Origin: an uncultured Acidobacteriota bacterium
GTDB lineage: Bacteria > Acidobacteriota > Thermoanaerobaculia > Multivoradales > SZUA-115
Direction: 5' to 3'
Assembly: GCA_963805975.1 (NCBI GenBank)
Contig: CAWDVR010000005.1
Coordinates: forward strand, 654,156-718,155
DNA: 64,000 nucleotides
The notes under the pieces are model-generated. The model ran no database searches. It was not told the DNA's origin and saw only the letters and a program-made list of their open reading frames with translations. Each line of letters opens with the position of its first letter. The stretch's first letter is position 1. A program made the position numbers and the translations under genes. Below, in pieces: positions 8,661 to 44,621 of the stretch.

Positions 8661-10033
<1,373 letters not shown>

Positions 10034-25125: not shown

Positions 25126-27660
25126 ATGAATAGAAACAGCTCCCGCTCCCTCCCGGTCCTCGCCACGCTGGCGGTGCTCGGTCTCGCGCTCGCAACGGCC
25201 CCTCCCGCCCGGGCCAAGGAGAAGGACGCCGACCTGGTCCAGGCTCTGCCTGCCAAGTACCAGACCTGGCTCGAGGAGGTCGACGTCCTGATCTCGAAAG
25301 AGGAGAAGGCGTCCTTTCTCGAGCTCAGAGAGGACTACCACCGGGACGCCTTCATCGAGCGCTTCTGGAAAGCGCGCGACCCCTACCCGGACACCGCCCG
25401 GAACGAGTTCCGCGACCGCTACCAGGAGATCTTGGCGCACGCCCGAGCCACCTACAGTGACCTCAAGGAGGAGCGGGCGCGCATGCTGCTCCTGAACGGC
25501 GAGCCGGCGGACGTCCGCGCGGTGCAGTGCTCGACCCTGCTGTGGCCCATCGAGCTCTGGATCTACGCCGGCAGCGACCGGGTCCGCTCGGACTTCTTCC
25601 TCGTCTTCTACCGCAAATGGGGCGGCGGCCGGTTCGTGCTGTGGCGGCCGATCGAGGGCCTGGAGCAGCTCTTCCAGGATCAGATGGGGGGCCAGAGCCC
25701 CGGCGCCAACGCCCTGCTGCGCATGATCTACGACCGTTGCTATCGCGGCGACGAGGTGGCGGGCATCCTCGGCTCGATCGTCAGCCAGGGCGCCATGGGT
25801 TACGAGATGCTGCTCGCCGAGGTCACCGAGAAGCCCGACCCTCCCGAGAGCGAGTGGGTCTCCACCTTCGAGGCCTACTCGACCGACCTGCCGCAGGGCG
25901 CGGCCACCCTGCCGGCCCGGGTGGAAGTTCTCTTTCCCGGGCGCCGGCAGAACCGTACCGCCGTCGAAGGCGTGGTCACCGTGCCGCTCGCCGAGGCGGG
26001 CCAGGCCGCGCTCGCCGACTTCCGCTCCTACAACTTCGTGCTCACCGGCGAGGTGCTGTCGGAAGCCGAGCTCTTCGATTCCTTCCGCTACAAGTTCGAC
26101 GTCCCGGTGCCGGAAGCGGGAGGCGAGTCCCTGCCCCTCGTGTTCCAGCGCTACCTGCGGCCAGGCTCCTACCGCTTGGTGGTCAAGCTCGAGGATCTGA
26201 ACAGCAAGAAGTTCTTCCGCGCCGACCTGCCGCTCGTCGTGCCCGCGGTCGGCGAGACACCACCTCCGGCGCCCGACGCCGAGACCGCGCGCCTCCTGGC
26301 CGAGGCCAACGCCGTGCTCGCCATGGGCGAGACCACGCTCCAGATCATCGAGCCCCAGGGCGAGCTCCTCTCCGGCATGCGGCGCATCGACACGCTGGTG
26401 ACCGGTCGCGACATCACCCGCGTGACCTTCCGGCTCGACGGCCGCGAGGTGCTGATCAAGAAGACGCCGCCCTACTCGGTGGAGCTCGACCTGGGATCGC
26501 TGCCCCGGCCCCGTACCCTCGAGGCCTTCGCCTACGACGCCTCCGGCCGCGAGCTGGCCTCGGACCGGGTGATCGTCAACGCCACCCCGCACCGCTTCAG
26601 CGTGCGCCTGGCCGAGCCTCGGCGCGGCGTGACCTACAAGGGGAGCCTGGTGGCCCGCGCCGAGGTCGAGGTGCCGGAGGGCCGCTCCGTCGAGCGCGTC
26701 GAGTTCTTCTTGAACGAGACCCGCGTCGCCACCCTCTACCAGCCGCCCTTCGAGCAGCCGATCGTGCTGCCGGAGAATGAGCCCCTGGCCTACGTGCAGG
26801 CCGTGGTCTACCTGCCGGACGGCAACTCCACCCAGGACCTGGTGTTCGTCAACGCGCCCGACCTCCTGGAGGAGATCGACATCCAGTTCGTCGAGCTCTA
26901 CACCACCGCTCTCGACCGCGACGGCCGTCCCAGCCTGGGGGTGGAGGAGAAGGACTTCCGGGTCTTCGAGGACGGCGTGGCGCAGGAGATCCGCCGCTTC
27001 GAGGTGGTGCGCGACCTGCCGATCCACACCGCGGTGGTGCTCGACGTCTCGGGCTCGATGGAGGAGAGCCTGGGCCAGGCGCGCGAGGCGGCGCTGGGCT
27101 TCTTCCAGCAGATCCTCAAGCCCAAGGACCGCGCGGCGCTGGTCACCTTCAACGACCGGCCGACGCTCGACGTCAAGTTCACCAACGAGGTCAACGCCCT
27201 CGCCGGCGGTCTCGCGGGGCTGAAGGCGGAGCGTGGCACGGCGCTCTACGACAGCCTGATCTTCGGCCTCTACTACTTCAACGGCATCAAGGGCCAGCGC
27301 GCCCTGCTGCTGCTCTCGGACGGCAAGGACGAGTCCAGCCGCTTCAAGTACGAGGACGCGCTCGAGTACGCCCGCCGCGCCGGGGTGACGATCTACGCCA
27401 TCGGCCTCGAGCTGCCCAAGGGTGAGGCGCGCCGCGAGCTGTCGCGCTTTGCGGACGAGACCGGTGGCCGCGCCTACTTCCTCGACTCGGTGGCCGGGCT
27501 GCCGGCGATCTACTCCGCCATCGAAGAGGAGCTGCGCTCGCAGTACTTGATCGCCTACCAGTCGGCGAACACCGCGAAGTCGACGGCCTTCCGCGCGGTG
27601 GAGGTCAAGATCGAGCGGCCGGGCTTCGAGGCCAAGACCATCCGGGGGTACTACCCGTGA
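25126..27660 (+). CDS. Secreted GWxTD-like/Ig-like x2/VWA protein, paralog 1
   Basis: Signal peptide; WLEEV..LI..EE...F, FIERFW..RDP.PDT..NE, ARMLLLNGEP; MIDAS DVSGS...GTALYD...LSDG; ends GYYP. Confidence 0.85.
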   Translation: MNRNSSRSLPVLATLAVLGLALATAPPARAKEKDADLVQALPAKYQTWLEEVDVLISKEEKASFLELREDYHRDAFIERFWKARDPYPDTARNEFRDRYQEILAHARATYSDLKEERARMLLLNGEPADVRAVQCSTLLWPIELWIYAGSDRVRSDFFLVFYRKWGGGRFVLWRPIEGLEQLFQDQMGGQSPGANALLRMIYDRCYRGDEVAGILGSIVSQGAMGYEMLLAEVTEKPDPPESEWVSTFEAYSTDLPQGAATLPARVEVLFPGRRQNRTAVEGVVTVPLAEAGQAALADFRSYNFVLTGEVLSEAELFDSFRYKFDVPVPEAGGESLPLVFQRYLRPGSYRLVVKLEDLNSKKFFRADLPLVVPAVGETPPPAPDAETARLLAEANAVLAMGETTLQIIEPQGELLSGMRRIDTLVTGRDITRVTFRLDGREVLIKKTPPYSVELDLGSLPRPRTLEAFAYDASGRELASDRVIVNATPHRFSVRLAEPRRGVTYKGSLVARAEVEVPEGRSVERVEFFLNETRVATLYQPPFEQPIVLPENEPLAYVQAVVYLPDGNSTQDLVFVNAPDLLEEIDIQFVELYTTALDRDGRPSLGVEEKDFRVFEDGVAQEIRRFEVVRDLPIHTAVVLDVSGSMEESLGQAREAALGFFQQILKPKDRAALVTFNDRPTLDVKFTNEVNALAGGLAGLKAERGTALYDSLIFGLYYFNGIKGQRALLLLSDGKDESSRFKYEDALEYARRAGVTIYAIGLELPKGEARRELSRFADETGGRAYFLDSVAGLPAIYSAIEEELRSQYLIAYQSANTAKSTAFRAVEVKIERPGFEAKTIRGYYP

Positions 27661-27705
27661 GCCATCTCCTGCGGCGCTCGTTGCCGTAGAGTCTGCGGAG
27701 ACATC

Positions 27706-30249
27706 ATGCGCCGCGACCTCCCGCCCCTGCTGCTCGCCGCCGCTCTGCTGGCCGTCGGCTCCGCGGCGGCCAGCGCGCCGGCGGCCCGCACCGAGCCGCC
27801 AGCGGTCGAGAAGCCGCAGGCCGGCGCTCCGGCAGAAGGCGGGCTGCCGCTCCAGTACCGCCAGTGGCTGGAGGAGGTCTCGGTGCTGATCACCGAGGAG
27901 GAGCGGCAGGTCTTCCTGGGGCTACAGAAGGACTACCAGCGCGACGCCTTCATCGACCGCTTCTGGCGCGAGCGCGACCCTTACCCGGACACCGGTAGAA
28001 ACGAGCTCCGCGAGCGCTGGAGCGAACGGGTGGACCTGGCGCGTGCCACCTTCCGCCGCCTGGACGACGCGCGCGCCAAGGTGCTGCTGCTCAACGGCGC
28101 GCCCGAGGTCCAGCGCCGGGTGCAGTGCCGCGCTGCCTTCTGGCCGCTCGAGCTGTGGTTCTATCCCGGTGGCAGCGACCTCTTCCGCTCCCGCTTCGTG
28201 GTCCTCTTCTACCAGCCCGGAGGCGGCGGGCCGTTCCGCATCTGGCACCAGAGCTTCGGCCGCCAGGAGCTGGTGAGCTTCGACACCGACGCGAGCTGCC
28301 AGCCCGACGACGTCGAGCTGATCCGCATCGCGCTGCGCTGGATCGACGAAGAGGGCGACGTGGGCTACAGGAGCCTGCTCGATCGCGTCTCCTCGTCCCC
28401 CGGCCTGGGCGGCCGCGAGTGGGTGGCGACCTTCAACTCGTACTCGACGGACCTGCCGGCGGGTGCCGAGACCTTCGCCGCCGAGGTGGCGCTCGACTTT
28501 CCCGGTTTTCACCAGAACCGCACGGTGGTGCAAGGCGCGGTTCTGATCTCCCCGGAGGCGGTGAAGGCTGCCGAGCTGGGCGGCGAGAAGAGCTACAACT
28601 TCGTGCTCACCGGCGAGGTGCTGCAAGGGCCGGCGCTCTTCGACTCCTTCCGCTACAAGTTCGACCTGCCGGCCGCGGCCCTTCCGGCGGGTACCGCCGG
28701 CGCCAGGATGCCCCTGGTCTTCCAGCGCTACCTGCGTCCGGGTGGGCCCTACACGCTGGTGGTCAAGGTGGAGGACCTGGCGGCCCGGCGGTTCTTCCGA
28801 CTGGAGCGCGCCTTCGAGGTGCCGCGGGTCACCGAGCCCGAGCTTGCGCCGCCGCTCGACCCGCGCCTCGCCGAGGTGCTGGCCGAGGCCAACGCCGCGC
28901 TCGCCGCGGGCGAGACCACGGTCAAGGTGGTGCCGCCCTTCGGTGATCTCCTGACCGGCTTCGTGCGCTTCGACACCGTGGTCACGGGCAGCGAGGTGCG
29001 GCAGGTGCGGTTCGAGCTCGACGGCGAGCCCATCCTCACCAAGACCAAGCCACCGTTCTCGGTGGAGCTCGACCTGGGAGACTTCCCGCGCCCGCACACG
29101 CTCCGCGCCACGGCCTTCGCCGAGAGCGGCGAGGAGCTCGCGAGCCACGAGATGCTGGTGAACTTGACCGGCAGCCGCTTCCGCGTGCGGCTCACCGAGC
29201 CCCACCGCGGCAAGCGCTACGAGAAGAGCCTGCGGGCACGGGCCGAGGTGGAGGTGCCCCAGGGCGACGCCTGCGAGCGGGTCGAGATGTACCTGAACGA
29301 CACCCTGGTCGCCACCCTCTACCAGCCGCCCTATGTGCAGCCGATCCTGCTGCCCGAGAAGCAGGAGTCGCTCTTCGTCCGTGCCGTGGCCTACCGCACT
29401 GACGGCGGCTTCTCCGAGGACGTGGTGTTCCTCAACACGCCCGGCTACGGCGAGGAGGTCGCCATCCAGCTGGTCGAGCTCTACACCTCGGTGCTCGACC
29501 GCCAGGGCCGTCCCGTGACGGGCTTGCAGCAGGGCGATTTCCGGGTGAAGGAGGACGGTGTCGAGCAGGAGATCGCGCGCTTCGAGCAGGTGCGCGACCT
29601 GCCGTTCCACGCCGCCATCGTGCTCGACACCTCGGCCTCGATGGCAGACCGTATCGAGGCCGCGCGCGCCGCGGCGCTCGAGTTCTTCGAGCACTCGATC
29701 CGGCCGCGGGACCGGGCGGCGCTCCTCACCTTCAACGACCGGCCCTACCTCACCGTGCCCTTCACCAACGATCCCAAGGTCTTCGGCCCCGGCCTCGCGG
29801 GCTTGAAAGCCGAGCGCGGCACGGCGCTCCACGACAGCCTGATCTACTCGCTCTTCTACTTCACGGGAGTGACCGGCCAGCGGGCGCTGATCGTGATCTC
29901 CGACGGCAAGGACGAGTCCAGCCGCTTCGAGTTCGACCAGGCCCTGGAGTACGCCCGCCGCGCCGGCATCACGGTCTACACCATCTCGCTGGGCCTCGAA
30001 AAAAAGGAAGCCGCGGCGAAAAAGGCCCTCACCCGACTGGCGGACGAGACCGGCGGCCGGAGCTTCTTCCTCGGCTCGATCGCGGAGCTACCCGCCGTCT
30101 ACTCCTCGATCGAGGAGGAGCTGCGCTCGCAGTACCTGGTGGCCTACCAGTCGAAGAACACCGCGCGCGACCGTGCCTTCCGCTCGATCGACCTCGAAGT
30201 CGCCCGCCGGGGCGTGGAAGTGAAGACGCTACGGGGGTATTACCCGTAG
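27706..30249 (+). CDS. Secreted GWxTD-like/Ig-like x2/VWA protein, paralog 2
   Basis: Same architecture; DTSAS MIDAS; long identical blocks with paralog 1. Confidence 0.85.
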   Translation: MRRDLPPLLLAAALLAVGSAAASAPAARTEPPAVEKPQAGAPAEGGLPLQYRQWLEEVSVLITEEERQVFLGLQKDYQRDAFIDRFWRERDPYPDTGRNELRERWSERVDLARATFRRLDDARAKVLLLNGAPEVQRRVQCRAAFWPLELWFYPGGSDLFRSRFVVLFYQPGGGGPFRIWHQSFGRQELVSFDTDASCQPDDVELIRIALRWIDEEGDVGYRSLLDRVSSSPGLGGREWVATFNSYSTDLPAGAETFAAEVALDFPGFHQNRTVVQGAVLISPEAVKAAELGGEKSYNFVLTGEVLQGPALFDSFRYKFDLPAAALPAGTAGARMPLVFQRYLRPGGPYTLVVKVEDLAARRFFRLERAFEVPRVTEPELAPPLDPRLAEVLAEANAALAAGETTVKVVPPFGDLLTGFVRFDTVVTGSEVRQVRFELDGEPILTKTKPPFSVELDLGDFPRPHTLRATAFAESGEELASHEMLVNLTGSRFRVRLTEPHRGKRYEKSLRARAEVEVPQGDACERVEMYLNDTLVATLYQPPYVQPILLPEKQESLFVRAVAYRTDGGFSEDVVFLNTPGYGEEVAIQLVELYTSVLDRQGRPVTGLQQGDFRVKEDGVEQEIARFEQVRDLPFHAAIVLDTSASMADRIEAARAAALEFFEHSIRPRDRAALLTFNDRPYLTVPFTNDPKVFGPGLAGLKAERGTALHDSLIYSLFYFTGVTGQRALIVISDGKDESSRFEFDQALEYARRAGITVYTISLGLEKKEAAAKKALTRLADETGGRSFFLGSIAELPAVYSSIEEELRSQYLVAYQSKNTARDRAFRSIDLEVARRGVEVKTLRGYYP

Positions 30250-30318
30250 GGGCTCGTCCGCCCTGTTCCGGCGTGCCTCGCGGGATCATCGATAGACTAG
30301 GCATCGGAGGTGTCCGCC

Positions 30319-30525
30319 ATGTCCCACACGTTCACGCTCGAGTACTGGCCCGATGAGGACGGCTACGTCGGCCGGCTGCGCGAGGTCCCCAGCGTCTTCA
30401 GCCAGGGAGACACGGTCGCCGAGCTCGAGGAGAACATCCGTGACGCGTACGCGCTGCTGCTCGAAGACGAGCTGGAGGACCATCACCCGCAGGCACTGCG
30501 CAAGGCAATCGAGGTCGCTGTTTGA
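30319..30525 (+). CDS. hicB: HicB-family antitoxin (short form)
   Basis: GGAGG RBS; GYVG...EVPSVFSQGDTVAELEENIRDA. Confidence 0.85.
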   Translation: MSHTFTLEYWPDEDGYVGRLREVPSVFSQGDTVAELEENIRDAYALLLEDELEDHHPQALRKAIEVAV

Positions 30526-30701
30526 AGCGCAGCTCCTTCCTGCGCGAGCTGGCTGAAGCTGGCTGCGAGCTTCATCGCCACGGCAAGAAGCACGACCTTT
30601 ATCGCAACCCGAAGAACGGCGCGAAATCGCCCGTACCGCGTCACACCGAGATCAAGAACAGCCTCTGCACGCTGATCCGCAAGCAGCTCGGCATTGGCTA
30701 G
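30522..30701 (+). CDS. hicA: HicA-family toxin (59 aa, missing from the ORF track)
   Basis: TTG start overlapping the hicB stop; MKRSSFLRELAEAGCELHRHGKKHDLYRNPKNGAKSPVPRHTEIKNSLCTLIRKQLGIG. Confidence 0.9.
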   Translation: MKRSSFLRELAEAGCELHRHGKKHDLYRNPKNGAKSPVPRHTEIKNSLCTLIRKQLGIG

Positions 30702-30794
30702 CAGGCTCCGACTGCCACGTAGTACCCGTGAGGCGTGCTGAGCTGCGCGGTGCGCAAAGGCCGGCTAGAATGAATGGCCTACTGAGGAGGCTCG

Positions 30795-30992
30795 ATGAGC
30801 ACGATGACCCTGACCGCAAAGGACCGAATGATGCGGGTGCTCCAGGAGCAGCCGGACGACAGCACCTACGTAGAGCTGCTGCGGGAGCTGGCCTTCGAGC
30901 GGATGATCGAAGACGGGATCGAGGATCTGGACGCAGGGAGAGTCGTGAGCCACGAAGAGGCGCTGCGCGAGATTCAATCGTGGGGAAAGTGA
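30795..30992 (+). CDS. Antitoxin of a ParE/RelE module
   Basis: IEDGIEDLDAGRVVSHEEA motif; overlaps the toxin gene. Confidence 0.8.
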   Translation: MSTMTLTAKDRMMRVLQEQPDDSTYVELLRELAFERMIEDGIEDLDAGRVVSHEEALREIQSWGK

Positions 30993-31276
30993 AGTGGAGT
31001 CGGACGGCCCTCTCATGATTGCGAGAGATCCGCGCTTATATCGCAAGGGACAACCCGAGGGCCGCGCTGCGTACCGTGAGCGGCATCGTAGAGCGCATTG
31101 AGATCCTCAGCCGCTTCCCCGAGATCGGTCAGCGCTACACGACGAAGTCCGGCAAGGAGTGCCGGATTCTGCTTTACGGCCACTACCGCATCGCCTACCG
31201 AGCCAATGCTGAAGGAGATGTCGAGCTGATCGGAATCTTCCACGGCGCTCTCGACATCGAGCGATTCCTCAGCTAG
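30980..31276 (+). pseudogene. ParE/RelE toxin with an in-frame TGA at 31016-31018
   Basis: VGKVKWSRTALS*LREIRAYIARDNPRAA...FPEIG...YRIAY...IFHGALD, all in one frame. Confidence 0.8.
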
Positions 31277-31400
31277 AGCAGGGCCCGAGCCGCTGACCTA
31301 TCGCATCCCGGAGCCCGCGACCCAGCTCCGGTCGGCTGAGACAGGGTCTCTCCTGCGTCGCGGCTGTCGTTGGGCTCGCCTCAATTCCGCATGCTGCGCG

Positions 31401-31652: not shown

Positions 31653-31728
31653 GAAAAGCCTCCGGTTTGCAGAGAGCATTGACACCCCCGCACCGCAACA
31701 GAACGGGCCAGGATGGCCGAAGCCGAGC

Positions 31729-32784: not shown

Positions 32785-32902
32785 GGTCGTCGGCCGCGTG
32801 GTCCCGTCGGCCGGCGCCGGGAGACGGAGGGCAGGGGCTGCGGCGAATAGTATGGCGGGATGGGCACGGGCGCCAAGGCGAGGACCGGCGAGCCCTCTCC
32901 GC

Positions 32903-32918: not shown

Positions 32919-32931
32919 GGCTGCCGGCGCC

Positions 32932-35577
32932 ATGACGTCGCCCCCCCACTCGACCGCCGCGTTCCTGCCCATCCTCCTGCTGACCGGCCTCGCCTGGGCC
33001 GCGACCTCGTCGCCGGCTCGCGCGGAAGAGACGGGGCCTTGGCCCGAGGCCGAGCGGAGCTTCTACTACGACGGCGCGGGCTGGCTGCTCGATGCGGGAA
33101 CGCGGGAGAAGCTCCTCACGGTGGACGCCGCGAGCCGGGCGGCCTCGATCGGGGCCTTCCTGGGCCGGGACCCGATCCCCGAGACGGCGGGCAACGAGCT
33201 CCAGGAAGGCATCCGGCGCCGCCTCGAGCTGGCGCGCTCGCTGTTCCTGTCCCCGGCCGACATCCGCTACCAGATCCTGTTCCTCAATGGCCCACCCGCC
33301 GAGCGCCTGGTCATCGACTGCGGCGAGGCCTACAAGCCGCTCGAGGTCTGGAGCTACACGGTGGCTTCGGCCTCAGGCGCGCGGGGCGTGGAGGCGCAGG
33401 AGGATTCCGGGGCCGAGCCCGAGGATGGGGAGGTCAAGGGCCGCTCCCTGCGCCGGCGCTCGCGGTGGTCGGAGGGGCCGATGCTGGTGCTCTTCCGCCC
33501 CACGCCGCTCGATCCGTACCAGCTCTGGCGCCCGCACGACGGCAAGAAGGTGCTCTACACCTCGCAGATGCAGTACCTGCTCGACCAGTACGAGGAGCTG
33601 CGCAACCTGATCGTCGGCATGCGGTTCGACCTCCAGTCGTGCAAGGAGGCGCGCAAGGTCGACCGCGCGACGGGGGTCGAGGGCCTCACCGGGTTCCTGC
33701 GCGGCCGCCCCACCGCGCCGGCCATCGACGCTTTCGTGGCGCCGCCCGAGGATCTCGCGACCTGGGCGCGCGAGGCCGCCCTCACCCCGCTGCCGCCGAG
33801 CGACAAGGCGGCGCTCGCCGCCTCCGCGCTCGACGTCCAGTTCCCGAACCTGGCGGGCGACCGCATGCTGACGCGGCTGGTGGTGACCGTGCCGGCGGGA
33901 GACCCGATCGTCCCCAACGCCGACGGCGATCTCGAGCTGATGGTCGAGGGTGTGCTGTCGAGCGAAGGCCGGGTGCTGGCCCAGACGCGGGTGCGTTTCG
34001 AGCTCGAGCCGGCGGAGGCCGGCCAGCCGTTGCAGCTGGCCATCGACGAGCTCTTGCGCCCCGGCCAACCGGTGGCGGCCCACTTCAAGGTCTGGGACGC
34101 GACGAGCGGTGCCACGGCCTGGGTGGCGGGTGGCTTCCGGGTGCCCCGCAGCCCGGTGGCCGAGGATGCCGTGGTGGGCTACCAGGGAGCCGTGGCCCAG
34201 GGCCAGAAGCTCGCCGAGGAGGCCGCCTCGGTGGCGCGCGACAGCCTGATGCTGGCGCCGCCGCTCGAAGGCCAGGTGGTGCTCGGGCTCTGGCGCTCGA
34301 TCGCGCTGGTCACCGGGACGGGGATCAAGAAGGTGATCTTCAAGCTGGATGGCGTGCCGCAAGTCACGCGCGTCGGCGCGCCGTGGGATGTCGAGCTGCG
34401 CCTGTCGACCTACCCACGCGAGCAGATCGTGAGCGCCGAGGGCTACGACGCGGCCGGCAAGCTGTTGGCCGTCGACGAGGTGATCCTCAACCAGCCGCGC
34501 GGCGCCTTCCGGGTGCGGATCGTCGAGCCGCGGCGAGGTGCCAAGCTCGCGGGCGAGGTCACGGCCCGCGCCGAGGTCGTGGTGCCGGACGAGCGGGAAG
34601 TGACCAAGGTGGAGTTCAAGGTGGGAGACGAGATCGTCGCCACGCTCGAGAAGCCGCCCTGGACGGCCGTGGTCCGGGCGCCGGCCACGGGCGAGACCGC
34701 CTACGTCTCAGCGACCGCCTACCTCGACGACGGCCGCCAGAGCGAGGACGTGCGCTTCCTCAACGCGCCCGCCTACGTCGAAGAGGTGGACGTCCGCCTG
34801 GTGGAGCTCTACACCACGGTCGCGGACCGCAATGGCCGGGTCGAGCCCGGTCTCACCGAGGCCGACTTCGAGGTGTTCGAGGACGGCCGGCGCCAGCAGA
34901 TCTCGAAGTTCGAGCTGGTCGAGAACCTGCCGCTGATCCTGGGCATCACCATCGACACCTCGGGCTCGATGTCGTCCGCGCTCACCGAGGCGCAGGCGGC
35001 CGCCCGCGCCTTCCTCGAAGAGGTGGTGCGGCCGGAAGACCACTGTTTCGTCGTCGCCTTCTCCGGCAAGCCGACCTTGGTGATGCCGCCCACCGACGAC
35101 GAGAGCGCCTGCTCGCTGGGCCTCGAAGGCTTGCAGGCGGTGGGCGCCACCGCGCTCCACGACGCGGTGGTCACCAGCCTCTACTACATGCGCGAGCTCG
35201 AAGGGCAGCGCGCGCTGGTGCTGCTCTCCGACGGCGACGACACCTCGAGCGGCATCGGTTGGAACGATGCGCTCGAGTACGCCAAACGGAGCGGTGTGGT
35301 GATCTTCCCCGTGGGTCTCGACGTGGGCGCCGCCGACCTGCGGGTGCGCGGCAAGCTGGGCGACCTGGCGCGGGAGACCGGCGGCCGGGTGTTCTACATC
35401 GACCGCGCCCGCGAGCTCGCGAGCATCTACGCCGAGATCGAGAACGAGTTGCGCAGCCGCTACCTCATCGCCTACGCCCCCGACCGCAGCGACGAGTCGG
35501 GCGCCTTCCGCGTGATCGAGGTCCGGGTGAAAAAGGACGGCTTGAAAGCGCGCACCCTCCGTGGCTACTATCGGTGA
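32932..35577 (+). CDS. Secreted GWxTD-like/Ig-like x2/VWA protein, paralog 3 (most divergent)
   Basis: Signal peptide from ATG 32932; RDPIPET..NE, LFLNGPP, DTSGS MIDAS, LSDG, ends GYYR. Confidence 0.82.
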   Translation: MTSPPHSTAAFLPILLLTGLAWAATSSPARAEETGPWPEAERSFYYDGAGWLLDAGTREKLLTVDAASRAASIGAFLGRDPIPETAGNELQEGIRRRLELARSLFLSPADIRYQILFLNGPPAERLVIDCGEAYKPLEVWSYTVASASGARGVEAQEDSGAEPEDGEVKGRSLRRRSRWSEGPMLVLFRPTPLDPYQLWRPHDGKKVLYTSQMQYLLDQYEELRNLIVGMRFDLQSCKEARKVDRATGVEGLTGFLRGRPTAPAIDAFVAPPEDLATWAREAALTPLPPSDKAALAASALDVQFPNLAGDRMLTRLVVTVPAGDPIVPNADGDLELMVEGVLSSEGRVLAQTRVRFELEPAEAGQPLQLAIDELLRPGQPVAAHFKVWDATSGATAWVAGGFRVPRSPVAEDAVVGYQGAVAQGQKLAEEAASVARDSLMLAPPLEGQVVLGLWRSIALVTGTGIKKVIFKLDGVPQVTRVGAPWDVELRLSTYPREQIVSAEGYDAAGKLLAVDEVILNQPRGAFRVRIVEPRRGAKLAGEVTARAEVVVPDEREVTKVEFKVGDEIVATLEKPPWTAVVRAPATGETAYVSATAYLDDGRQSEDVRFLNAPAYVEEVDVRLVELYTTVADRNGRVEPGLTEADFEVFEDGRRQQISKFELVENLPLILGITIDTSGSMSSALTEAQAAARAFLEEVVRPEDHCFVVAFSGKPTLVMPPTDDESACSLGLEGLQAVGATALHDAVVTSLYYMRELEGQRALVLLSDGDDTSSGIGWNDALEYAKRSGVVIFPVGLDVGAADLRVRGKLGDLARETGGRVFYIDRARELASIYAEIENELRSRYLIAYAPDRSDESGAFRVIEVRVKKDGLKARTLRGYYR

Positions 35578-35597: not shown

Positions 35598-36260
35598 ATG
35601 CCTCTACGAGCTGCAGCCACCGCCTTCGCCATCGTTCTCTTCCTCGCCACCTCCGCCTTCGCCGCGGAGACCGGGATCTTCGAGCTCGGCTCGATCAACA
35701 AGAAGTACGACCATCTGACCTCGGACCTGGCGCCGGTCGAGACCGGCGGCGTCAAGGTCGAGCTCTCTTCGCCGCGCAACGAGCTCTCCCTGCTCTCCAA
35801 CCGCATGGTGCTGCGGCCGCTGGGGCAGGGGAGCTACGATCTCGCCCTGCAGATCGAGTTCGGCGGCAGCGGCTCGCTGATCGCCGATCTCGACGTGTCG
35901 GGCGCCAAGTCGCGCCTGACCGACGAGCTGACCGTGCCGCCCCAGCGCCGCACGGTGCTCGCCAAGATCAAGATCGCACGCTCGCGCTCCGGCTACCTCA
36001 TCACCCCCACCGAGCTGCCGAAAGCCTTCGAGGTGGAGATCGAGAGCCGGCTCGGCTCGCAGCTCGTTGCCGCGTGCAAGCCGCTCGGCCTCCTCATGCC
36101 GCTCGATTGCGGGAGCCTGGAGCGCGCCTTCACCCTGGTCTCGATCCCCATGCCCGCGCTGGGCGAGACCTACCTGTTCGAGGGCGATCGCCTGGCGGAA
36201 GGCGAGCGGCGTGACCTCGACGCCTACCTGAAGCGCACCGGCGCCACGTTCCTGGACTGA
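35598..36260 (+). CDS. Secreted hypothetical protein
   Basis: Signal peptide MPLRAAATAFAIVLFLATSAFA; beta-rich; C-terminal part of the 32775 ORF frame. Confidence 0.7.
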   Translation: MPLRAAATAFAIVLFLATSAFAAETGIFELGSINKKYDHLTSDLAPVETGGVKVELSSPRNELSLLSNRMVLRPLGQGSYDLALQIEFGGSGSLIADLDVSGAKSRLTDELTVPPQRRTVLAKIKIARSRSGYLITPTELPKAFEVEIESRLGSQLVAACKPLGLLMPLDCGSLERAFTLVSIPMPALGETYLFEGDRLAEGERRDLDAYLKRTGATFLD

Positions 36261-36283
36261 CCCGGCTCCTCTTCCTGCCCGTC

Positions 36284-36312
36284 TGTCATCCTCCGCTGCG
36301 CTCAGGATGACA
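36284..36312. repeat. Short REP-like palindrome (same family as 41788-41902)
   Basis: TGTCATCCT...CGCTGCGCTCAGGATGACA. Confidence 0.75.
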
Positions 36313-39300
36313 CTGGGAGGATTTCTCCCCCTTCCACCGCCTCCGGCCAGGTCAGGCCCTCCTGGGTCGCCAGGTTCACGATCTCCTGGTGCTCGCGAAC
36401 CTGGAAGAAAAAGGAATGCCTCTCCCTGGGCTCGAGGCAGTCCGCCTTGGCCAGGAGCAGCCGATACGCCTGGCGCAGGTGCGGCAGGGCGCCGCGCGGC
36501 CGGTTGGCGCGGTGCGCGAGCCAGGAAAGCGCCTGGTAGTGGCGTAGCTCGCCGATCTCCCGCCGCTCGAAGTGCAGCCTTGCTCCCAGCAGCTTGGTGA
36601 TCTCGGCGGCCAGGCTCTCGACCTTCTCCTCGTCCACCGCCGCGATCGCCAGCTCGATCCAGGCCGCGAGATCCAGCATCACCGCCTCGGGATCCTTGGC
36701 CCGGCGGTGCGCCGCCACGGCCTCGGGGAAGGCCCGTCCGGCCTCGCTCCACTGCCGCTTCAGGAAGAGCACGGTCGCGATCAGGCGCTCGGCATCGCCC
36801 AGGGCAGTGTTGAGCGCGCTCAGCATGCAGAGATCGAAATGGGCGCGGCGGGCCTCCTCGAGCGCGCTGTCCGGGTGCTTCAGGTGGAGGTGGTTCTCGG
36901 CCACCGCCAGGCGGGCGATGGCCGCGCCGGCAGGGTCCTCGCCCGCCTCCCGCAAGGCCAGGGCGCGCCGCAAGGGCGCGGCGGCGGCAGTGTAGTCCCC
37001 CAGGCGGGAGAGGGCCTTGCCGATGCCGAGCAGGGCGAACCCGATCTCGGCCTTGTCGCCGGCCGCCGCGAGCAGGCCCTCGGCCTCGCGGTAGTGCGCC
37101 AGGGCGTCGGGATACCGGCCTTCGAGCAGAGCGATCCGGCCGAGCGCGGAGAGCGAGGCGCCCACGGCCTTCGACGGATCGAGACGGCGGCGGACGGCGA
37201 GCGCTCGTTGGTGCAGCTCGAGTCCGTCGCGCAACCGGTGCTGGTGCACGGCGACGTTGCCGAGGAGGAAGAGGCAGCTCGCGGCGAGCCACGAGACATG
37301 GGCCGAGGCCAGGTGCGGCAAGACGCGCTCCAGCAGCTCGCGCGCTTCCTCCTGGCGCTCCTGGCGGATCAGCAGGCGGGCGAGGTGGAGGGCCAGCACC
37401 GCGCCGGCCCGCTGGTCGCCCCCTCCGATCGTGGTCAGCGCCTGGCGCAGGGTCGCTTCCGCCTCCGGCAGCCGGCCTTCCTGCTCCTCGAGCTCGGCAC
37501 CGAGGCCGGCGAGCGCCAGGCTCTTCTTGGTGTCGCCCCCGGCCAGCCCGCGGGCCAGTCTCAGCTCGCCCGCGAGATCCCGCAGGCGACCGAGCTTCTT
37601 GGCGAGAGGAAGGAGGTGCCAGAGGATCAGCAGCTCCCGCTGCGGCTGGGCGCCGGGCGCGCCGCCGGTCCGGGCGCGCTGCTCCTCGAGCTCGGCGGCG
37701 AGGGCCTCGTAGAGCGCGTCCGGCGGCGTCTGGCCCTCGCGGATCGCTTCCAGGAGCACCGGGAGCCTCTGGGTCGCGGCGGCGAGGAGCCGGTAGCGCC
37801 GCCAGGCGGTCCGTGGTGCTGCCGGTAGCGCGGTGCCGACCGCGGCACGGAGGCGGCTCTCCTCCTCGGCCGGGAGCGTGGTGCGCAGCGCCGCGGCGAA
37901 GGCCGGGCAGGTGATCCCGAGGCCCTCGCCCCAGGGCGTGGGCACCGATTCGGCCCAGCCCGCCGCCACCCACGTCCCCGGCCAGCCCGCCGCAGGGTCC
38001 TCCCCACCGGCTGCGGCCAGGATCGCGGGGGGCAACGGGGCCTGGGCGCTGGCGAGGAGGCGTGCCGCCCACGGCGCCCCCAGGCGGCAGGCCTCGGCCT
38101 CGGCGTGCTGCACCAGCCGCTCCGACGGATGGTAGGGCACCGCATCGCTCGCGCCGAAGAAGAAGCTGCCGTGGACCTGGCGGATCAGTCCCAGGGGAAG
38201 GAGCGCCGCGAGCCCTTCCTCGAGGGCGAAGGGGTTGCCCTGGGCGGTCTCCAACAGGCGCTCCCGCACGGTGGCCGGGAGGGAGAGGCCGGCTGCGAGC
38301 TGGGTGAGCGTGGTCTCCGCGGCGGCGGCAGGCAGCGGGCCCACGCGGAGGACGGCGGGGGAGAACGCGGCGAGGGAGGCCGGCGCCGAGCGCCCGGCGG
38401 CCAGCAGGCGGAAGCCGCCCCCGGAGCCGGCCGCTCCTCCGGAGCAGGCCGCGCCGGCGAGCCGCTCGAGACCGGCGAGATCCGCGGGCGATAGGGCCTC
38501 CAGGTCGTCCACCACCACGGCGGGCGGCCTGCCGGTCCGTCGGCCGAGCTGGGTGAGAAGGCCGGGCAGAGCGGATGCCAGGCCCTCGTCGTCCATCCCG
38601 AGCTCGCCCAAGCCCTGGAAGTCCGTGCCCGTGGCAGCGCCGGCGGCCAGCGTGCGGAGCAGGAGCTGGGCGGCGAGGCTCGGTCCCGCGTGCCGTGCGG
38701 GGCGCAGCCTCACCCACAAGGGAGGGACCTTGGCTCCGGCCAGCGCTTCCCAGAGCGCCCGGGTCTTGCCGCAGCCGGCCGCGCCGGTGACCACCAGCAG
38801 CGGCGCCGGTGAGGCCAGGGCGCGGTCCAGGTCCGGCCGGCGGACGTAGGGAAGACGGCGCCGCAAGAGCTCCGGGCTGCGAAACGGAGGGGCCTCGGCA
38901 TCCTCGCCGAGAGCCTGGAGCAACGGCACCCGCAAGCCACTGGGTCCCTGGTAGGCGCCGGCCGGGCGCAGCTTGCGGCGGATCTCCAGGCGTGCCGCGG
39001 CATGGGTGGTGAGGTGGATCCTGCCCGCTTCGAGCGTCGGTGCCTGCCGCTCCGTCTCTTCGAGGACGGGGTTGGCCGCGACGGTGCCCGACGGCATCTC
39101 CACCTGGCCGGGGAAGACGAGGAGGCGCAGGCCACCGTGCGCGGTGCCCTCCTCCGAGGCCGTCAGCAGCTCGGACGCCACCGCCAGGGCGGTCTCGAAG
39201 ACCGCCGGATCGCCGGCCTCCGGCAGCACCGCGCAGAGGTTCGGCCGCGTCCAGACGACCCCCGGCCGCTCTCTCAGGGCCTGTCGCTTCCTGGCCAGGG

Positions 39301-39385
39301 TCTCTGCCCGGCCGTGCTCCTCCCAGACCCGGACCAGGGCGGCCGGGAGGAGGAGTCGCGGCTCGTGGCGGGGCTGCTCTGCCAT
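36302..39385 (-). CDS. STAND-like P-loop NTPase with C-terminal TPR repeats
   Basis: GAAGCGKT, VVVVDDLE, GNPFALEE, long TPR array. Confidence 0.8.
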   Translation of the reverse strand: MAEQPRHEPRLLLPAALVRVWEEHGRAETLARKRQALRERPGVVWTRPNLCAVLPEAGDPAVFETALAVASELLTASEEGTAHGGLRLLVFPGQVEMPSGTVAANPVLEETERQAPTLEAGRIHLTTHAAARLEIRRKLRPAGAYQGPSGLRVPLLQALGEDAEAPPFRSPELLRRRLPYVRRPDLDRALASPAPLLVVTGAAGCGKTRALWEALAGAKVPPLWVRLRPARHAGPSLAAQLLLRTLAAGAATGTDFQGLGELGMDDEGLASALPGLLTQLGRRTGRPPAVVVDDLEALSPADLAGLERLAGAACSGGAAGSGGGFRLLAAGRSAPASLAAFSPAVLRVGPLPAAAAETTLTQLAAGLSLPATVRERLLETAQGNPFALEEGLAALLPLGLIRQVHGSFFFGASDAVPYHPSERLVQHAEAEACRLGAPWAARLLASAQAPLPPAILAAAGGEDPAAGWPGTWVAAGWAESVPTPWGEGLGITCPAFAAALRTTLPAEEESRLRAAVGTALPAAPRTAWRRYRLLAAATQRLPVLLEAIREGQTPPDALYEALAAELEEQRARTGGAPGAQPQRELLILWHLLPLAKKLGRLRDLAGELRLARGLAGGDTKKSLALAGLGAELEEQEGRLPEAEATLRQALTTIGGGDQRAGAVLALHLARLLIRQERQEEARELLERVLPHLASAHVSWLAASCLFLLGNVAVHQHRLRDGLELHQRALAVRRRLDPSKAVGASLSALGRIALLEGRYPDALAHYREAEGLLAAAGDKAEIGFALLGIGKALSRLGDYTAAAAPLRRALALREAGEDPAGAAIARLAVAENHLHLKHPDSALEEARRAHFDLCMLSALNTALGDAERLIATVLFLKRQWSEAGRAFPEAVAAHRRAKDPEAVMLDLAAWIELAIAAVDEEKVESLAAEITKLLGARLHFERREIGELRHYQALSWLAHRANRPRGALPHLRQAYRLLLAKADCLEPRERHSFFFQVREHQEIVNLATQEGLTWPEAVEGGEILPVSS

Positions 39386-39578
39386 GGTGGTCGGGCCCTC
39401 TCCTGCCTTCCAGGCCCCTGCCAGGGCTTGCGTAGTGTGAGAAGTGCGATAGGCTAAGGGCCGGCCTGGAGCTCGAGGGCCGACCACCCTAGTCGAATCG
39501 CACCTCGTTCCCAACTTCAGAGTCGCCGTCCGGACGGCCACTCTGCTTCAAGCAAGAACGCGTCGGAGGAAAGCAAAC

Positions 39579-40127
39579 ATGCGCTCTCGCCGCCTAATGA
39601 ATCGACTCTACTATTTCACCATTGAGGATGAAAGCATTCTCGCTGAGGCCTTCTCTAAGCTCGAGGACGACGTCTACGCCATCACTTACAAGGTGACCGG
39701 CACGGATGACGTTTTCGTCACCACCCGCGAGACCAAGGACGCCATGGATCGCAACGACGTCTCCTACAACCTCCTGGCGGAGGAGGACGCGTCGCGGATC
39801 TCGATCTACCATTCGCCTCTCTCGCGCGAAGAGCTGTCGGACTACGAAGACGCGATCCGCGCCCTCGCCCTGGCGCACCGTGCCATCGCGCTCGCCTGCG
39901 TCGGCGTCAACGGCGAGACCAACCTCGGCTTCGACCTCTCCGAGGGCCCCAAGCAGTACACCTACTTCTCGGCGCCCGGCGGCCACACCTTCATCTGGCG
40001 GCTGTTCTTCGAGCGCGACGACGCCCAGAGCTTCCTCGAGCGCTGGACCTTCGGCGAGAAGCGGGCCCTGGAGTGGGCTGCCTCGATCCCGCTGGTCTCG
40101 GCAAGCGAGCTGCGGTCCTATCATTGA
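39579..40127 (+). CDS. Hypothetical acidic protein, translationally coupled to xseA
   Basis: GGAGG RBS, typical codon bias, TTGA overlap with xseA. Confidence 0.75.
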   Translation: MRSRRLMNRLYYFTIEDESILAEAFSKLEDDVYAITYKVTGTDDVFVTTRETKDAMDRNDVSYNLLAEEDASRISIYHSPLSREELSDYEDAIRALALAHRAIALACVGVNGETNLGFDLSEGPKQYTYFSAPGGHTFIWRLFFERDDAQSFLERWTFGEKRALEWAASIPLVSASELRSYH

Positions 40128-41512
40128 CGTACGCGGCGGCGGAATTCACTCACTCCGTCTCTGAGCTCTGCGAGGAGATTCACACTCTCCTCGCAGAGTC
40201 CTTTCCGTCGGCCTGGGTGGCGGGGGAGGTGCAGCGGGTCCGCCGCAGCCAGCGCGGGCACCTGTACTTCGAGCTCGCCGAGAAGGGCGCCGGCGACGAG
40301 ATCGCCGCCAAGCTCGATGCCGTGATCTGGCGGACGGACCTCGAGCGCATCAGCCGATTGCTCGCCGCCTCCGGCCAATCGATCTCCGAGGGTGTCGACC
40401 TGCGCTGCCGGGCGGCGGTGGACTTCTATCCACCCGGCGGCCGGCTGCAGCTCGTGGTGCGGGAAGTGGACCCGCTGGCGAGCCTGGGCCTGCTCGAGCG
40501 ACGCCGCCGGCAGACGCTGGCGGAGCTCGCCGCGGCCGGCGTCCTCGACCAGAACCGCGGCCTCTCACTGCCCGACCTGCCGCTCGAGATCGCCCTCGTC
40601 ACCTCGCAGGGCAGCGCCGCCTACCACGACTTTCTCACCACCCTTGGCGAGAGCGGCTACGGCTTTCGCGTGCTCTTCGTCCACGCCTCGGTCCAGGGCA
40701 AGAGCGCGGAGCGCGAGATCGCCTCGGCGCTGGCCTCGTTGGCCGGCGCCGGCGTGGCCTGCGCGGTGCTGATCCGCGGCGGCGGCTCGCGCTCCGACCT
40801 CGCGGTCTTCGACAGCCGCGAGGTGGCCTTCGCCGTGGCCCGGGCCCCCTTCCCGGTGCTGACCGGGCTGGGGCACGAGATCGACCAGGCGATCACCGAT
40901 CGCGTGGCCCACACCGCGGCCAGGACTCCCACCAAGGCCGCCGAGCTGCTGGTGGAGCTCGTGGGCCGTGCCGAGCGCCGGCTCTCGGAGCTCCAAGGCG
41001 GCTTGAGGTCCGCGGCCCTTCTGCCCCTCGACCGCGGCCGGCACCGGCTGGCCCTCGCCGAGCACGCCGTGACGCGGGCCCGGCATCGCCTGGAGCATGC
41101 AGGCGCGCGCCTGGCGGAGATCCATCGTTGCCTGGGCCGCGCCGGCCTCGTCCTGCTCTCCACCGCGGCCCATCGCCGGAGGGCCCTCTCCGAGCGCCTG
41201 CGGCTGGCTTCTCCCCGGCTTCTCGAGCGCCGGGCGGACGAGCCCCGGCAGGTGGGGGCACGGCTCGCGGCCGCCTCGCGCGGCCAGCTCCGCACCGCGT
41301 CGCGCACTCTCGCCGGGCTCGAGCGCCTGTGCACCGAGCTGGGCCCCGGCCGCACCCTGCGGCGCGGCTTCACCATCACTCGCACGGCGGCCGGTGCGCT
41401 GGTACGCTCGCCGGCGGCCACGGTGGCGGGCGAACGCATCCTGACCGAGACAGCCGGCGGGCCGGTCGCCAGCCGCGTCGAGGCATTTCCGGTGGAGGTT
41501 TCCCCGGCATGA
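40124..41512 (+). CDS. xseA: Exodeoxyribonuclease VII large subunit
   Basis: WVAGEV, GHLYF, IRGGGS, GLGHEID, TPTKAA. Confidence 0.95.
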   Translation: MTYAAAEFTHSVSELCEEIHTLLAESFPSAWVAGEVQRVRRSQRGHLYFELAEKGAGDEIAAKLDAVIWRTDLERISRLLAASGQSISEGVDLRCRAAVDFYPPGGRLQLVVREVDPLASLGLLERRRRQTLAELAAAGVLDQNRGLSLPDLPLEIALVTSQGSAAYHDFLTTLGESGYGFRVLFVHASVQGKSAEREIASALASLAGAGVACAVLIRGGGSRSDLAVFDSREVAFAVARAPFPVLTGLGHEIDQAITDRVAHTAARTPTKAAELLVELVGRAERRLSELQGGLRSAALLPLDRGRHRLALAEHAVTRARHRLEHAGARLAEIHRCLGRAGLVLLSTAAHRRRALSERLRLASPRLLERRADEPRQVGARLAAASRGQLRTASRTLAGLERLCTELGPGRTLRRGFTITRTAAGALVRSPAATVAGERILTETAGGPVASRVEAFPVEVSPA

Positions 41513-41784
41513 GCACCGCGAAGACGAACGAAACGCCGGGCACTGCCTCCGAGGCCCCGGTCTCCGAAACCACGGCCCCGAGCTTCTCCGAGGCGATGGC
41601 CGAGCTCGAATCGATCCTGGCGCGGATCGAGAGCGAGGAGATCGACGTCGACGACCTCGCCCGCGAGCTCTCCCGCGCGAGCCGCCTGCTCGAGATCGCG
41701 CGCGGCAAGATCCGCAAGGCCGAGGTCGAGGTGACGCAGATCGTCCAGGCCCTCGACGCGGAGAAGCCGGACGGCGATAGTTGA
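41509..41784 (+). CDS. xseB: Exodeoxyribonuclease VII small subunit
   Basis: SFSEAMAELESIL..IE; ATGA overlap with xseA. Confidence 0.92.
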   Translation: MSTAKTNETPGTASEAPVSETTAPSFSEAMAELESILARIESEEIDVDDLARELSRASRLLEIARGKIRKAEVEVTQIVQALDAEKPDGDS

Positions 41785-41787
41785 ACC

Positions 41788-41902
41788 TGTCATCCTGAGC
41801 GCAGCGAAGGATCTGGGCGGGGGAAGCGTGCCGACCACCAGATCCTTCGCTGCGCTCAGGATGACAACCGGGCCGCGGATCATGCCTGCGCTCAGGATGA
41901 CA
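41788..41902. repeat. REP-like element: perfect 29-bp inverted repeat plus a partial third copy
   Basis: TGTCATCCTGAGCGCAGCGAAGGATCTGG (41788-41816) / complement at 41838-41866; partial copy 41886-41902. Confidence 0.88.
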
Positions 41903-41925
41903 AGTTGACTTGATCATTCTGCGCC

Positions 41926-41954
41926 TTGCCTCGGCCAACGCCCGTCCGTAGGAT
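41926..41954 (+). promoter_or_regulatory. Candidate sigma-70 promoter, leaderless start of paralog 4
   Basis: TTGCCT-N17-TAGGAT, 6 nt before GTG 41961. Confidence 0.5.
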
Positions 41955-41960
41955 GGGCCG

Positions 41961-44621
41961 GTGCGCGCCTCTCTCCTCCGCGGCCCGCTCACGGGTTTGC
42001 TGCTCGCCGCCTGGGCCGTCTCCGTCAGCGGTGAGACAGCCCCGGTAGCTCCGCCTCCCGGCCCGCCCGTCCGCTACGCCGCCTGGCTCGCCGAAGTGGC
42101 GGTCCTGATCTCGGACGCCGAGCGCCAGACCTTCCTCTCGCTCGGCAAGGACTTCCAGCGCGAGGAGTTCATCCGCCGCTTCTGGCAGGCCCGCGACCCG
42201 TATCCGCAGACGGCGCGCAACGAGCTCCTGGAAGCCTGGAAGGAGCGGGTGGACGCGGCACGGGAACGCTTCGGAGGCCTGGAGGAAGAGCGCGCCCGGA
42301 TGCTCCTCGCGCTGGGGCCGCCGGCGACCTCGGTGCGCGCTTCCTGCTCCGAGGTGCTGCGGCCACTCGAGATCTGGACCTACTCGCGGGGGCGTGACAG
42401 TCGGGACTCCTTCACCCTGGTCTTCGTGGCGCCGACCGGCTCACCGGGCGGGCCGTTCGCGCTCTGGCATCCCGGCCACGGCCTGGCGCCGCTCTTGTCG
42501 CTCACGGCGCAGTCGTTGCTCGGGCCCGCTGGCGCCGACCCGCTCTCGCCGGGCGGTACCGACCGGGGCGGAGCTCCCCTGGCCTCCGGCCGAGCCTCTG
42601 AGCTGGGAGGCTCCGGGCTGGGCGCTCTTGGCGGGGGCGGCGAGCCGGCGCGGGTCTCCACCGCCATCGCCGAGCATTGCAGCCGGGGAGACGACATCCT
42701 GTCCGGCCTGGCGAGCGCGGTCGACGGCAGGCTCCCGGCCGGGGGCGCGATCGAGACCGCGCGCGCTCTCCTGCCGCGGCCGAACGACGAGTGGCTGCGC
42801 ACCTTCGTCGCCTTCTCGACCGACCTGCCCGCCGGCGCCCGGACCTTCGACGCCGAGCTCGCGGTCAGCTTTCCCGGCCGCCAGCAGAGCCGCACCGTGG
42901 TCCAGGGCTTGATCTCGGTGCCGGCGCCCGCGGTGGAGGCGGGAGCGGGCCGCCCCTTCGTGCTCGACGGCGAGGTGCTGCGCGGACAGGAGCTCTTCGA
43001 GCACTTCCGCTACCGGTTCCAGATGGGGCCGTCGGACGCGGTCGCGGGGCGCTGGCCGCTCCTCTTCCAGCGCCTGCTGCGGCCCGGCGAGTACACCTTG
43101 ATCGTCAAGGTCGAGGAGCCGGGCGAGAGCCGCTTCTTCCGCGTCGAGCAGGCGCTCTCGGTACCTGCCGAGCCCACGCCGATTGCCGTGGCAGGTGTGA
43201 CGGCGGGCGCGGAGCCGGTGCTGCCGGGCGCTCCGCCCGCGGACCAGGCGCTTGCCGAGAGGCAAGGTGCGCTCGCGGCCGGCGACACCGCCATCGAGCT
43301 GCTGGCGCCGCCGGCCCGTCTCTTGACCGGCCGCCACCGATTCGAGGCCCTGGCGGTGGGAGCGGCGGTGGCGCGGGTGCGCTTCGAGCTCGACGGCAAG
43401 CCGGTGCTCACCAAGCGCGAGCCGCCGTGGAGCGCCGAGGTGGATCTCGGCCCGGCGCCGCGCATCCGCCGGCTGCGGGCCGTGGCCCTCGACGCAGAAG
43501 CGCGCGAGCTCACCGCGGACGAGCTGGTGGTCAACGCCGGGCCGCACCGCTTCGCCGTACGGCTCCTCGAGCCGCGGCCCGGCGAGCGCTATACGGCGAG
43601 CGTGCCGGCTGCCGCGGTGGTCGAGGTGCCCGAGGGAGAGATCCTCGAGCGCCTGGAGGTGTATCGGGGCGAGACCCTGGTCGCGACCCTCTACCAGCCT
43701 CCTTTCTCGCAGCCGATCCTGCTGCCCGCGGGCGAGGAGACGAGCTACGTACGGGCGGTCGCCTACCTCGCCGACGGCAGCTCGACGGAAGACGCGGTGC
43801 TGATCAACAGCCCCCAGTTCGGCGAGAGCCTGAAGGTGCGCTTCGTCGAGCTCTACACCGCGGTGGTCGATCGCCGCGGGCGGCCGGTCGAGGATCTCGC
43901 CCGCGGCGACTTCCGCGTCTTCGAGAACGGCGCCGAGCAGACCGTGCTGCGTTTCGAGCGGGTCCGCGATCAGCCCATCCACGCCGGGGTGCTGCTCGAC
44001 ACCTCGGCCTCGATGCTCGAGGAGCTCGCGGACGCGGAGGCGGGTGCGCTCGAGTTCTTCGGCTCGGTGCTGACCGCCAGGGACCGCGCGGCGGTGATCA
44101 CCTTCAACGACGGGCCGCGTCTCGCCGTGCGCTTCACCAACGACCCCGAGGTGCTGGCCGGCGGCCTCGCCGGTCTCACCGCCGAGGGCGAGACGGCGCT
44201 CTACGACAGCCTGATCTACGGCCTCTATTACTTCAGCGGCCTCTCCGGCAAGCGGGCGCTGATCCTGCTCTCCGACGGCGAGGACTCCACCAGCCGCTAC
44301 CGTTTCGAAGACGTGGTGGAATACGCTCGCCGCACCGGAGTGGCCATCTATCCGATCGGTATCGGCCTCGCGAGCCGCCAGAACGAGTTTCGCCTGAAGC
44401 TCTCCCGGCTGGCGAAGGAGACCGGCGGCTTGGCCTTCTTCACCGACGGTGGGAGCGGCATCGGCCGTGCCTACCAGGCGATCGCAGCCGAGCTGCGTTC
44501 GCAGTACCTGCTGGCCTACCAGTCGGCGAGCGGCGAGGGCGACGAAGCCTTCCGGGAGGTGGAAGTGAAGATGCGGCAGCCGGCGCTCGACGCCAAGACC
44601 ATCCTCGGTTACTACCCTTGA
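41961..44621 (+). CDS. Secreted GWxTD-like/Ig-like x2/VWA protein, paralog 4
   Basis: WLAEV, FIRRFW..RDPYPQTARNE, DTSAS MIDAS, ends GYYP; Gly-rich insert. Confidence 0.85.
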   Translation: MRASLLRGPLTGLLLAAWAVSVSGETAPVAPPPGPPVRYAAWLAEVAVLISDAERQTFLSLGKDFQREEFIRRFWQARDPYPQTARNELLEAWKERVDAARERFGGLEEERARMLLALGPPATSVRASCSEVLRPLEIWTYSRGRDSRDSFTLVFVAPTGSPGGPFALWHPGHGLAPLLSLTAQSLLGPAGADPLSPGGTDRGGAPLASGRASELGGSGLGALGGGGEPARVSTAIAEHCSRGDDILSGLASAVDGRLPAGGAIETARALLPRPNDEWLRTFVAFSTDLPAGARTFDAELAVSFPGRQQSRTVVQGLISVPAPAVEAGAGRPFVLDGEVLRGQELFEHFRYRFQMGPSDAVAGRWPLLFQRLLRPGEYTLIVKVEEPGESRFFRVEQALSVPAEPTPIAVAGVTAGAEPVLPGAPPADQALAERQGALAAGDTAIELLAPPARLLTGRHRFEALAVGAAVARVRFELDGKPVLTKREPPWSAEVDLGPAPRIRRLRAVALDAEARELTADELVVNAGPHRFAVRLLEPRPGERYTASVPAAAVVEVPEGEILERLEVYRGETLVATLYQPPFSQPILLPAGEETSYVRAVAYLADGSSTEDAVLINSPQFGESLKVRFVELYTAVVDRRGRPVEDLARGDFRVFENGAEQTVLRFERVRDQPIHAGVLLDTSASMLEELADAEAGALEFFGSVLTARDRAAVITFNDGPRLAVRFTNDPEVLAGGLAGLTAEGETALYDSLIYGLYYFSGLSGKRALILLSDGEDSTSRYRFEDVVEYARRTGVAIYPIGIGLASRQNEFRLKLSRLAKETGGLAFFTDGGSGIGRAYQAIAAELRSQYLLAYQSASGEGDEAFREVEVKMRQPALDAKTILGYYP

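Follow-up and report, generated by a model that had tools for sequence, protein, structure and literature searches.

Four Paralogous GWxTD–VWA Proteins in an Acidobacteriota Locus: A Class-Wide Fusion Family with Two Candidate Partners

Introduction

The window considered here, that is, the whole stretch of 64,000 nucleotides that was analysed, comes from an uncultured Acidobacteriota bacterium and carries, within 20 kb, four genes encoding large related proteins, denoted p1 to p4. The question raised by this locus is what these proteins are and whether the four of them constitute a single envelope system, as an earlier reading made from the letters of the DNA alone (the sequence-only reading) had suggested. 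The first claim of that reading, namely that four large proteins with a shared layout are encoded by related genes, was borne out: the four open frames are intact and lie on the forward strand, p2, p3 and p4 align with p1 over their full length (56%, 36% and 49% identity, respectively), and every pair is matched by tblastn with an E value of 1e-108 or better, so that their likeness cannot be due to chance. They are the sole full-length copies in the 5.36 Mb genome, and their domains follow the order signal peptide–GWxTD–Ig–Ig–Ig–VWA (Ig, immunoglobulin-like; VWA, von Willebrand factor A). The family that they represent is a signature of the class Thermoanaerobaculia (the name of the class, and the assignment of the homologues to Thermoanaerobaculia/Acidobacteriota, follow the names given by the sources).

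25126..27660, + strand: p1, 844 aa, first copy of the array adjacent to iscS
25255..25671, + strand: GWxTD-type head of p1 (residues ~44–182), with a helical linker next to it
25858..26250, + strand: Ig M of p1 (residues ~245–375)
26332..26865, + strand: Ig I1 and I2 of p1
26875..27657, + strand: VWA domain of p1, inserted in a beta-sandwich
27706..30249, + strand: p2, 847 aa, built like p1 and duplicated in tandem; its clade is limited to family f1
32932..35577, + strand: p3, 881 aa, open frame from 32860, the most divergent copy; order-wide subfamily
41961..44621, + strand: p4, 886 aa, with a Gly-rich insert in the linker, abutting maf; order-wide subfamily

Architecture of the Four Paralogues

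The domains were assigned with two family models, TIGR04514 (GWxTD; cut-off 28 bits) and TIGR03436 (VWA; cut-off 81.25 bits). All four proteins exceed the latter (172.9, 198.1, 175.9 and 177.9 bits for p1 to p4), with nearly the whole model covered, in agreement with the family call of the sequence-only reading. [quoted passage not shown] Among the 67 full-length copies of the family, DxSxS is present in 66 and [ST]DGxD in all. The GWxTD-like N-terminal domain claimed for the four proteins stands for p1, p2 and p4 (49.9, 48.7 and 56.3 bits with TIGR04514) but not, by this model, for p3, which gave no match at E ≤ 0.01. The head of p3 reaches 8.6 bits with the canonical GWxTD profile and 94 bits with the head profile of the family and, because of the latter match, it is counted as a GWxTD homologue. 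None of the four proteins matched PF20094 (GWxTD domain).

Export of all four paralogues is probable, as had been proposed, judging from signal peptides called by eye in their sequences (hydrophobic core, Ala-rich end and no lipobox Cys), with a hydropathy peak above 1.6 in p1 and p2 only. The conserved Cys pair is also present in all four; Cys135 and Cys205 occur together in 136/141 aligned sequences, and a disulfide is inferred from this conservation. Structure modelling of the full-length protein (pLDDT 87.9, pTM 0.68) and of the head, linker and Ig region (pLDDT 96.5, pTM 0.90) predicts that the GWxTD head, the linker and the first Ig form one compact fold, probably locked by the disulfide, that the other two Ig domains make up an arm, and that the VWA domain lies within a terminal beta-sandwich. 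Thus, Ig-like units do stand between the N-terminal domain and the VWA, as the sequence-only reading had it, although there are three sandwiches and not two. Similarly, the linker behind the N-terminal domain is indeed the most variable part (10–31% identity between paralogues), but the charged insert of p3, which had been placed there, sits within the N-terminal domain, behind the W.Y strand. Between paralogues, the VWA domain is the most conserved (41–63% identity), with 30–53% for the head and 24–56% for Ig M. Apparent alternative C-termini in four representatives (P0229, P0241, P0264 and P0271) were read as frameshifted tails and rejected as new architectures.

Origin of the Family by Fusion of Two Modules

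Canonical GWxTD proteins could be aligned from 29 of 30 fetched loci, and the 340-residue N-terminal unit of the family matched them over 320 columns in profile–profile (HH) comparison (probability 99.95, E 2e-38). By this comparison of sequences, the homology with the canonical proteins runs through the head, the linker and the first Ig over their whole length. At the GWxTD site, the fusion proteins show a four-residue gap and a Leu for the Trp, and they lack the 13-residue loop of the canonical proteins, where the first conserved Cys stands. The literal motif is found in 0/67 full-length copies, the family-defining W and T being lost in all of them; the erosion of the GWxTD word noticed in the four paralogues is therefore a replacement at the aligned site that extends to the whole family.

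The genome contains 19 TIGR03436 members over the cut-off, and the canonical first Ig matches the C-terminal part of six of them (E 1e-8 to 7e-3). Since the same type of Ig is found behind stand-alone VWA proteins, the family joins two heads. Exported modules are thus combined in this genome in several arrangements, namely the head by itself, the VWA by itself, Ig-VWA, VWA-Ig and the complete fusion. Eight of 150 distant representatives carry two or three heads, and some lack the first Ig. The Atlas neighbours of the family are GWxTD clusters.

The genome (G000) also holds two stand-alone short GWxTD genes, at L042:14667-15335 (C3) and L043:7633-8379 (C4), one of them following folE and the other, with a YfhO-like gene nearby, following a Wzm/Wzt-type ABC pair.

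Distribution, Subfamilies and Gene Order

When a profile of the first Ig was run against 301 genomes of the phylum, 27 were positive, comprising 13/13 in the order to which this genome belongs and 14/16 elsewhere in the class, while none of the 272 other genomes of the phylum had a match. In a sample of the class, which includes among the positives one unpublished genome (G062) that none of the conclusions relies on, 90 of 101 genomes had the family: 24/24 in the order, with 2–7 matches each, and 66/77 elsewhere, with 1–3. Copy number ranges from 1 to 7 and is often one outside the order, and a class genome of 2.0 Mb is also positive; together with the absence from the other 272 genomes of the phylum, this is how a core envelope protein would be distributed. 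Such proteins are commonplace in the class, with 1294 relatives among 7994 scored, and GWxTD itself is found in 95/121 genomes of the phylum.

In a tree of the 67 copies, quickly built and rooted at its midpoint, the p3 clade (support 100) spans four families and the p4 clade (support 99) five, whereas the p1 and p2 clades (support 100 each) are both limited to family f1; tandem duplications have arisen independently in several families. Two genes flank the array.

23850..25043, − strand: IscS-like cysteine desulfurase, divergent 5′ flank kept across the class; the order is probably inherited
44618..45229, + strand: maf, the gene conserved on the 3′ side of the ancestral array

Of 40 loci selected around hits, 18 have the IscS-like gene as their divergent 5′ neighbour and 15 have maf on the 3′ side, and in two genomes (G299 and G017) a single copy stands between iscS and maf. 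The p1 and p2 genes are family-level duplicates in the ancestral slot between iscS and maf, and p3 and p4 are order-wide subfamilies. Synteny in relatives was found. The notion of a four-member system, in contrast, was not supported: the same-genus genome has five copies, copy number varies as described, the p1 and p2 clades do not extend beyond f1, and the flanks are housekeeping genes. Clustering within 20 kb recurs in G001 and G004, and p3 is located elsewhere in other families. In the window, p1 and p2 are only 45 nt apart on one strand, but the array is flanked and interrupted by other genes: iscS/mnmA, toxin-antitoxin genes (HicBA-like and ParE-type), yhaM, the orphan at 35598, a gene for an AAA-TPR protein, xseAB and maf. 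They make of the 20 kb three separate sites rather than a single operon. A promoter and terminator scan gave counts at chance level. A functional link to iscS, mnmA and maf was considered and rejected, as these are cytoplasmic tRNA/nucleotide genes and the gene order is seemingly inherited.

Candidate Partners

Two proteins of the window had been suggested as partners, and a genomic link was found for each.

35598..36260, + strand: 35598 protein, 220 aa, predicted signal peptide, two invariant Cys, 20 nt after p3
3667..5691, + strand: 3667 protein, CarboxypepD_reg domain and predicted beta-barrel, present once in the genome, ahead of a histidine kinase and a sigma-54 regulator

The 35598 protein had no match in Pfam and none by sequence in the PDB. 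Its family occurs as one copy each in 21/101 genomes of the class, all of them in the order (21/24), and in 21/21 the homologue stands next to a gene that matches p3 best (20 co-directional and one convergent), which makes it a candidate partner, and a lead, for p3. Beside it, a gene for a large AAA+TPR protein (36302-39541, − strand) accompanies the p3 block in both f1 and f9.

For the 3667 protein, the link lies in canonical GWxTD loci. In 7/20 canonical GWxTD neighbourhoods the next gene encodes a CarboxypepD_reg-barrel protein, and the barrel part of these proteins matches the 3667 family in profile–profile comparison (probability 95.7, E 1e-8; 0.2 for the reversed control). A barrel-only hidden Markov model (HMM) from seven sequences did not match the 3667 protein, so that their kinship is argued from the profile comparison and from the shared downstream kinase, a kinase of the same type lying 3′ of the barrel in 15/30 loci of the phylum and 23/24 of the class. 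GWxTD adjoins the barrel in 16 of the best 30 barrel loci, 15 of them from one family and seven being the sources of the profile. Judged by sequence, the 3667 barrel is a candidate partner only, a lead in that its homologue comes next after canonical GWxTD genes in two other families.

As an observation in its own right, the barrel gene opens a run (3667-10033, + strand) that continues with a PDZ/GAF/PAS histidine kinase and the sigma-54 regulator, and the barrel–kinase pair is kept across much of the phylum; this pair may represent an undescribed envelope signalling unit.

A Weak BamE-like Signal in the Head

In the models, the second half of the head shows the order helix–GxP–strand–W.Y–strand–strand, which we take to be that of BamE/OmlA domains. 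Against a BamE-like profile, consisting of 22 of 27 PF04355 matches, this half scores 23 with an HH probability of 22%, a weak value below normal significance. It exceeds the maximum of 40 column shuffles (13.3) and also the scores of the other domains of the family, and the top four of 37 sliding windows (18.8–24.1; next 16.2) all overlap it. Foldseek searches (PDB, VIA-wide and viral) with the N-terminal model gave matches dominated by the Ig domain.

Proposed Role and Alternatives

The reading that we favour, tentatively and at somewhat less than an even chance, is that the family consists of exported, non-enzymatic, two-ended adaptors of the cell envelope that act in a metal-dependent manner. 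Sec export would bring the paralogues out of the cytoplasm. The VWA end would then grip a conserved protein ligand at an acidic residue via Mg2+/Mn2+, the head–Ig unit would dock on an envelope partner specific to each subfamily, and the Ig arm would span between both ends. That partner would be the 35598 protein for the p3 type; for the ancestral form, an outer-membrane barrel is the foremost guess. The contrast between the highly conserved VWA and the more varied head and Ig M suggests a shared ligand at one end and varied partners at the other. Metal-dependent binding is proposed by analogy with established VWA biochemistry and with CglB, for which MIDAS-dependent ligand binding by a bacterial VWA protein is documented (PMC9946355). 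No signal for surface anchoring or secretion was seen in the sequences or in the family scans, an unknown route being possible, and for this reason the periplasm is the most likely location.

Several observations weigh against this proposal. The GWxTD–barrel adjacency is limited to two families, with none in the other 14 of the best 30 barrel loci, and in the window the 3667 barrel lies 20 kb away. The BamE-like signal is weak (HH probability 22–47%), and canonical GWxTD reaches a probability of 1.4% with the same profile. The HMM of the canonical Ig does not match the Ig M of the paralogues, so that this link is a profile–profile one only. No VWA match occurred in 20 canonical GWxTD neighbourhoods, which weakens the argument that fusion implies partnership. 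Finally, the 35598 homologue is missing from all three f7 genomes despite their p3-type genes, and 11/101 genomes of the class have no match to the family.

The main rival, unlikely but serious, is that these are surface adhesins, in the manner of pilus-tip adhesins or CglB, in which the head would serve as anchor and the Ig arm would hold out the VWA tip to bind a substrate, the matrix or other cells. It is rather improbable that there is one ancestral function and that the extra copies are largely redundant products of birth-and-death duplication. The single iscS–maf copies, the independent tandem duplications and the variable copy number would fit, but the p3 and p4 clades are retained in several families with their own fixed neighbours, and none of the four paralogues has lost its frame or its MIDAS motif.

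No more probable is a bolder reading, in which a BamE/BLIP-like GWxTD head would dock on an outer-membrane barrel of the single-copy 3667 family, which is wired to a conserved two-component system, MIDAS VWAs would capture client proteins and a modular set of heads on a shared Ig would provide partners specific to each subfamily, such as 35598; the fusion would then be the core of an undescribed, Acidobacteriota-specific system for envelope assembly or tethering. If true, it would explain at one stroke what two of the most expanded orphan families of the phylum do.

We consider it still less probable that the head has gone unrecognised as an enzyme or as a domain that binds small molecules, with the VWA as a targeting module. 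Its conserved polar residues (R73, R84, N93, E94 and R117), and the failure to find a sequence relative of the head in the PDB, would be compatible with it, but no catalytic motif was recognised, the defining W and T are lost throughout the family, and duplication or triplication of the head better fits a binding module. Finally, a fixed hetero-oligomer of the four paralogues is very improbable, since the shared clustering and the proximity of p1 and p2 are outweighed by the varying copy number (five in a same-genus genome and one in many genomes), by the restriction of the p1 and p2 clades to one family and by the different location of p3 in other families.

Neighbouring Genes

Between p2 and yhaM (30319-31276, + strand) there are two small toxin-antitoxin pairs, one HicB-like/HicA and the other composed of an unnamed 65-aa frame and a ParE-type gene with an internal stop in frame. 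An orphan of 176–182 aa just upstream of xseA (39579-40127, + strand) is 78–98% identical in f1 relatives, and another of ~100 aa downstream of maf (45216-45524, − strand) is kept in nine relative loci and the window; neither has a match in Pfam. Beside the array, a SurA N-terminal-like gene (21265-21957, − strand) is conserved between slt and rsmI, and prmC (16721-17574, + strand) is apparently split across two frames.

Relation to Known Systems

Both modules are already catalogued, public databases label these proteins as "VWA domain-containing", and the locus is ordinary for its class. The fusion, the motif loss and the partner links were not found in print: a literature search (supplements lay outside it) returned nothing on them, nor any characterised family with this architecture, as the sequence-only reading had anticipated. 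In the available part of PMC3174227, a von Willebrand paralogue is named only in two tables. GWxTD and TIGR03436 are orphan families, both abundant in a phylum that is dominant in soils, and a class-wide fusion with two named candidate partners reduces the search for their function to a few interactions that can be tested.

TIGR03436 (acidobact_VWFA), for which no assigned function was found, is an expanded paralogue family that includes p1–p4; however, the remaining members in the genome consist of the VWA by itself, Ig-VWA or VWA with an Ig behind it, whereas in the paralogues the VWA stands at the C-terminus, preceded by a GWxTD head and three Ig. Canonical GWxTD proteins (TIGR04514/PF20094; ~550 aa, GWxTD-Ig-Ig) share the head, linker and first Ig with the family, which differs in the replaced motif, the lost loop, the absence of the second Ig and the appended Ig-Ig-VWA. 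The VWA adhesins Mfa5, PilB, SpaC, RrgA, LapA and M. xanthus CglB are likewise exported MIDAS VWA proteins on an Ig-like scaffold, and CglB acts with outer-membrane barrels (PMC9946355); their sequence kinship with the family is limited to the VWA core, and the family shows no pilin, sortase, lipoprotein or RTX features. Lastly, the family is set apart from the BamE/OmlA-BLIP-PepSY superfamily (PMC2954215) by not being a lipoprotein and by having no PF04355 match, and may resemble it in the element order of the second half of the head, where the best, though weak, profile scores also lie.
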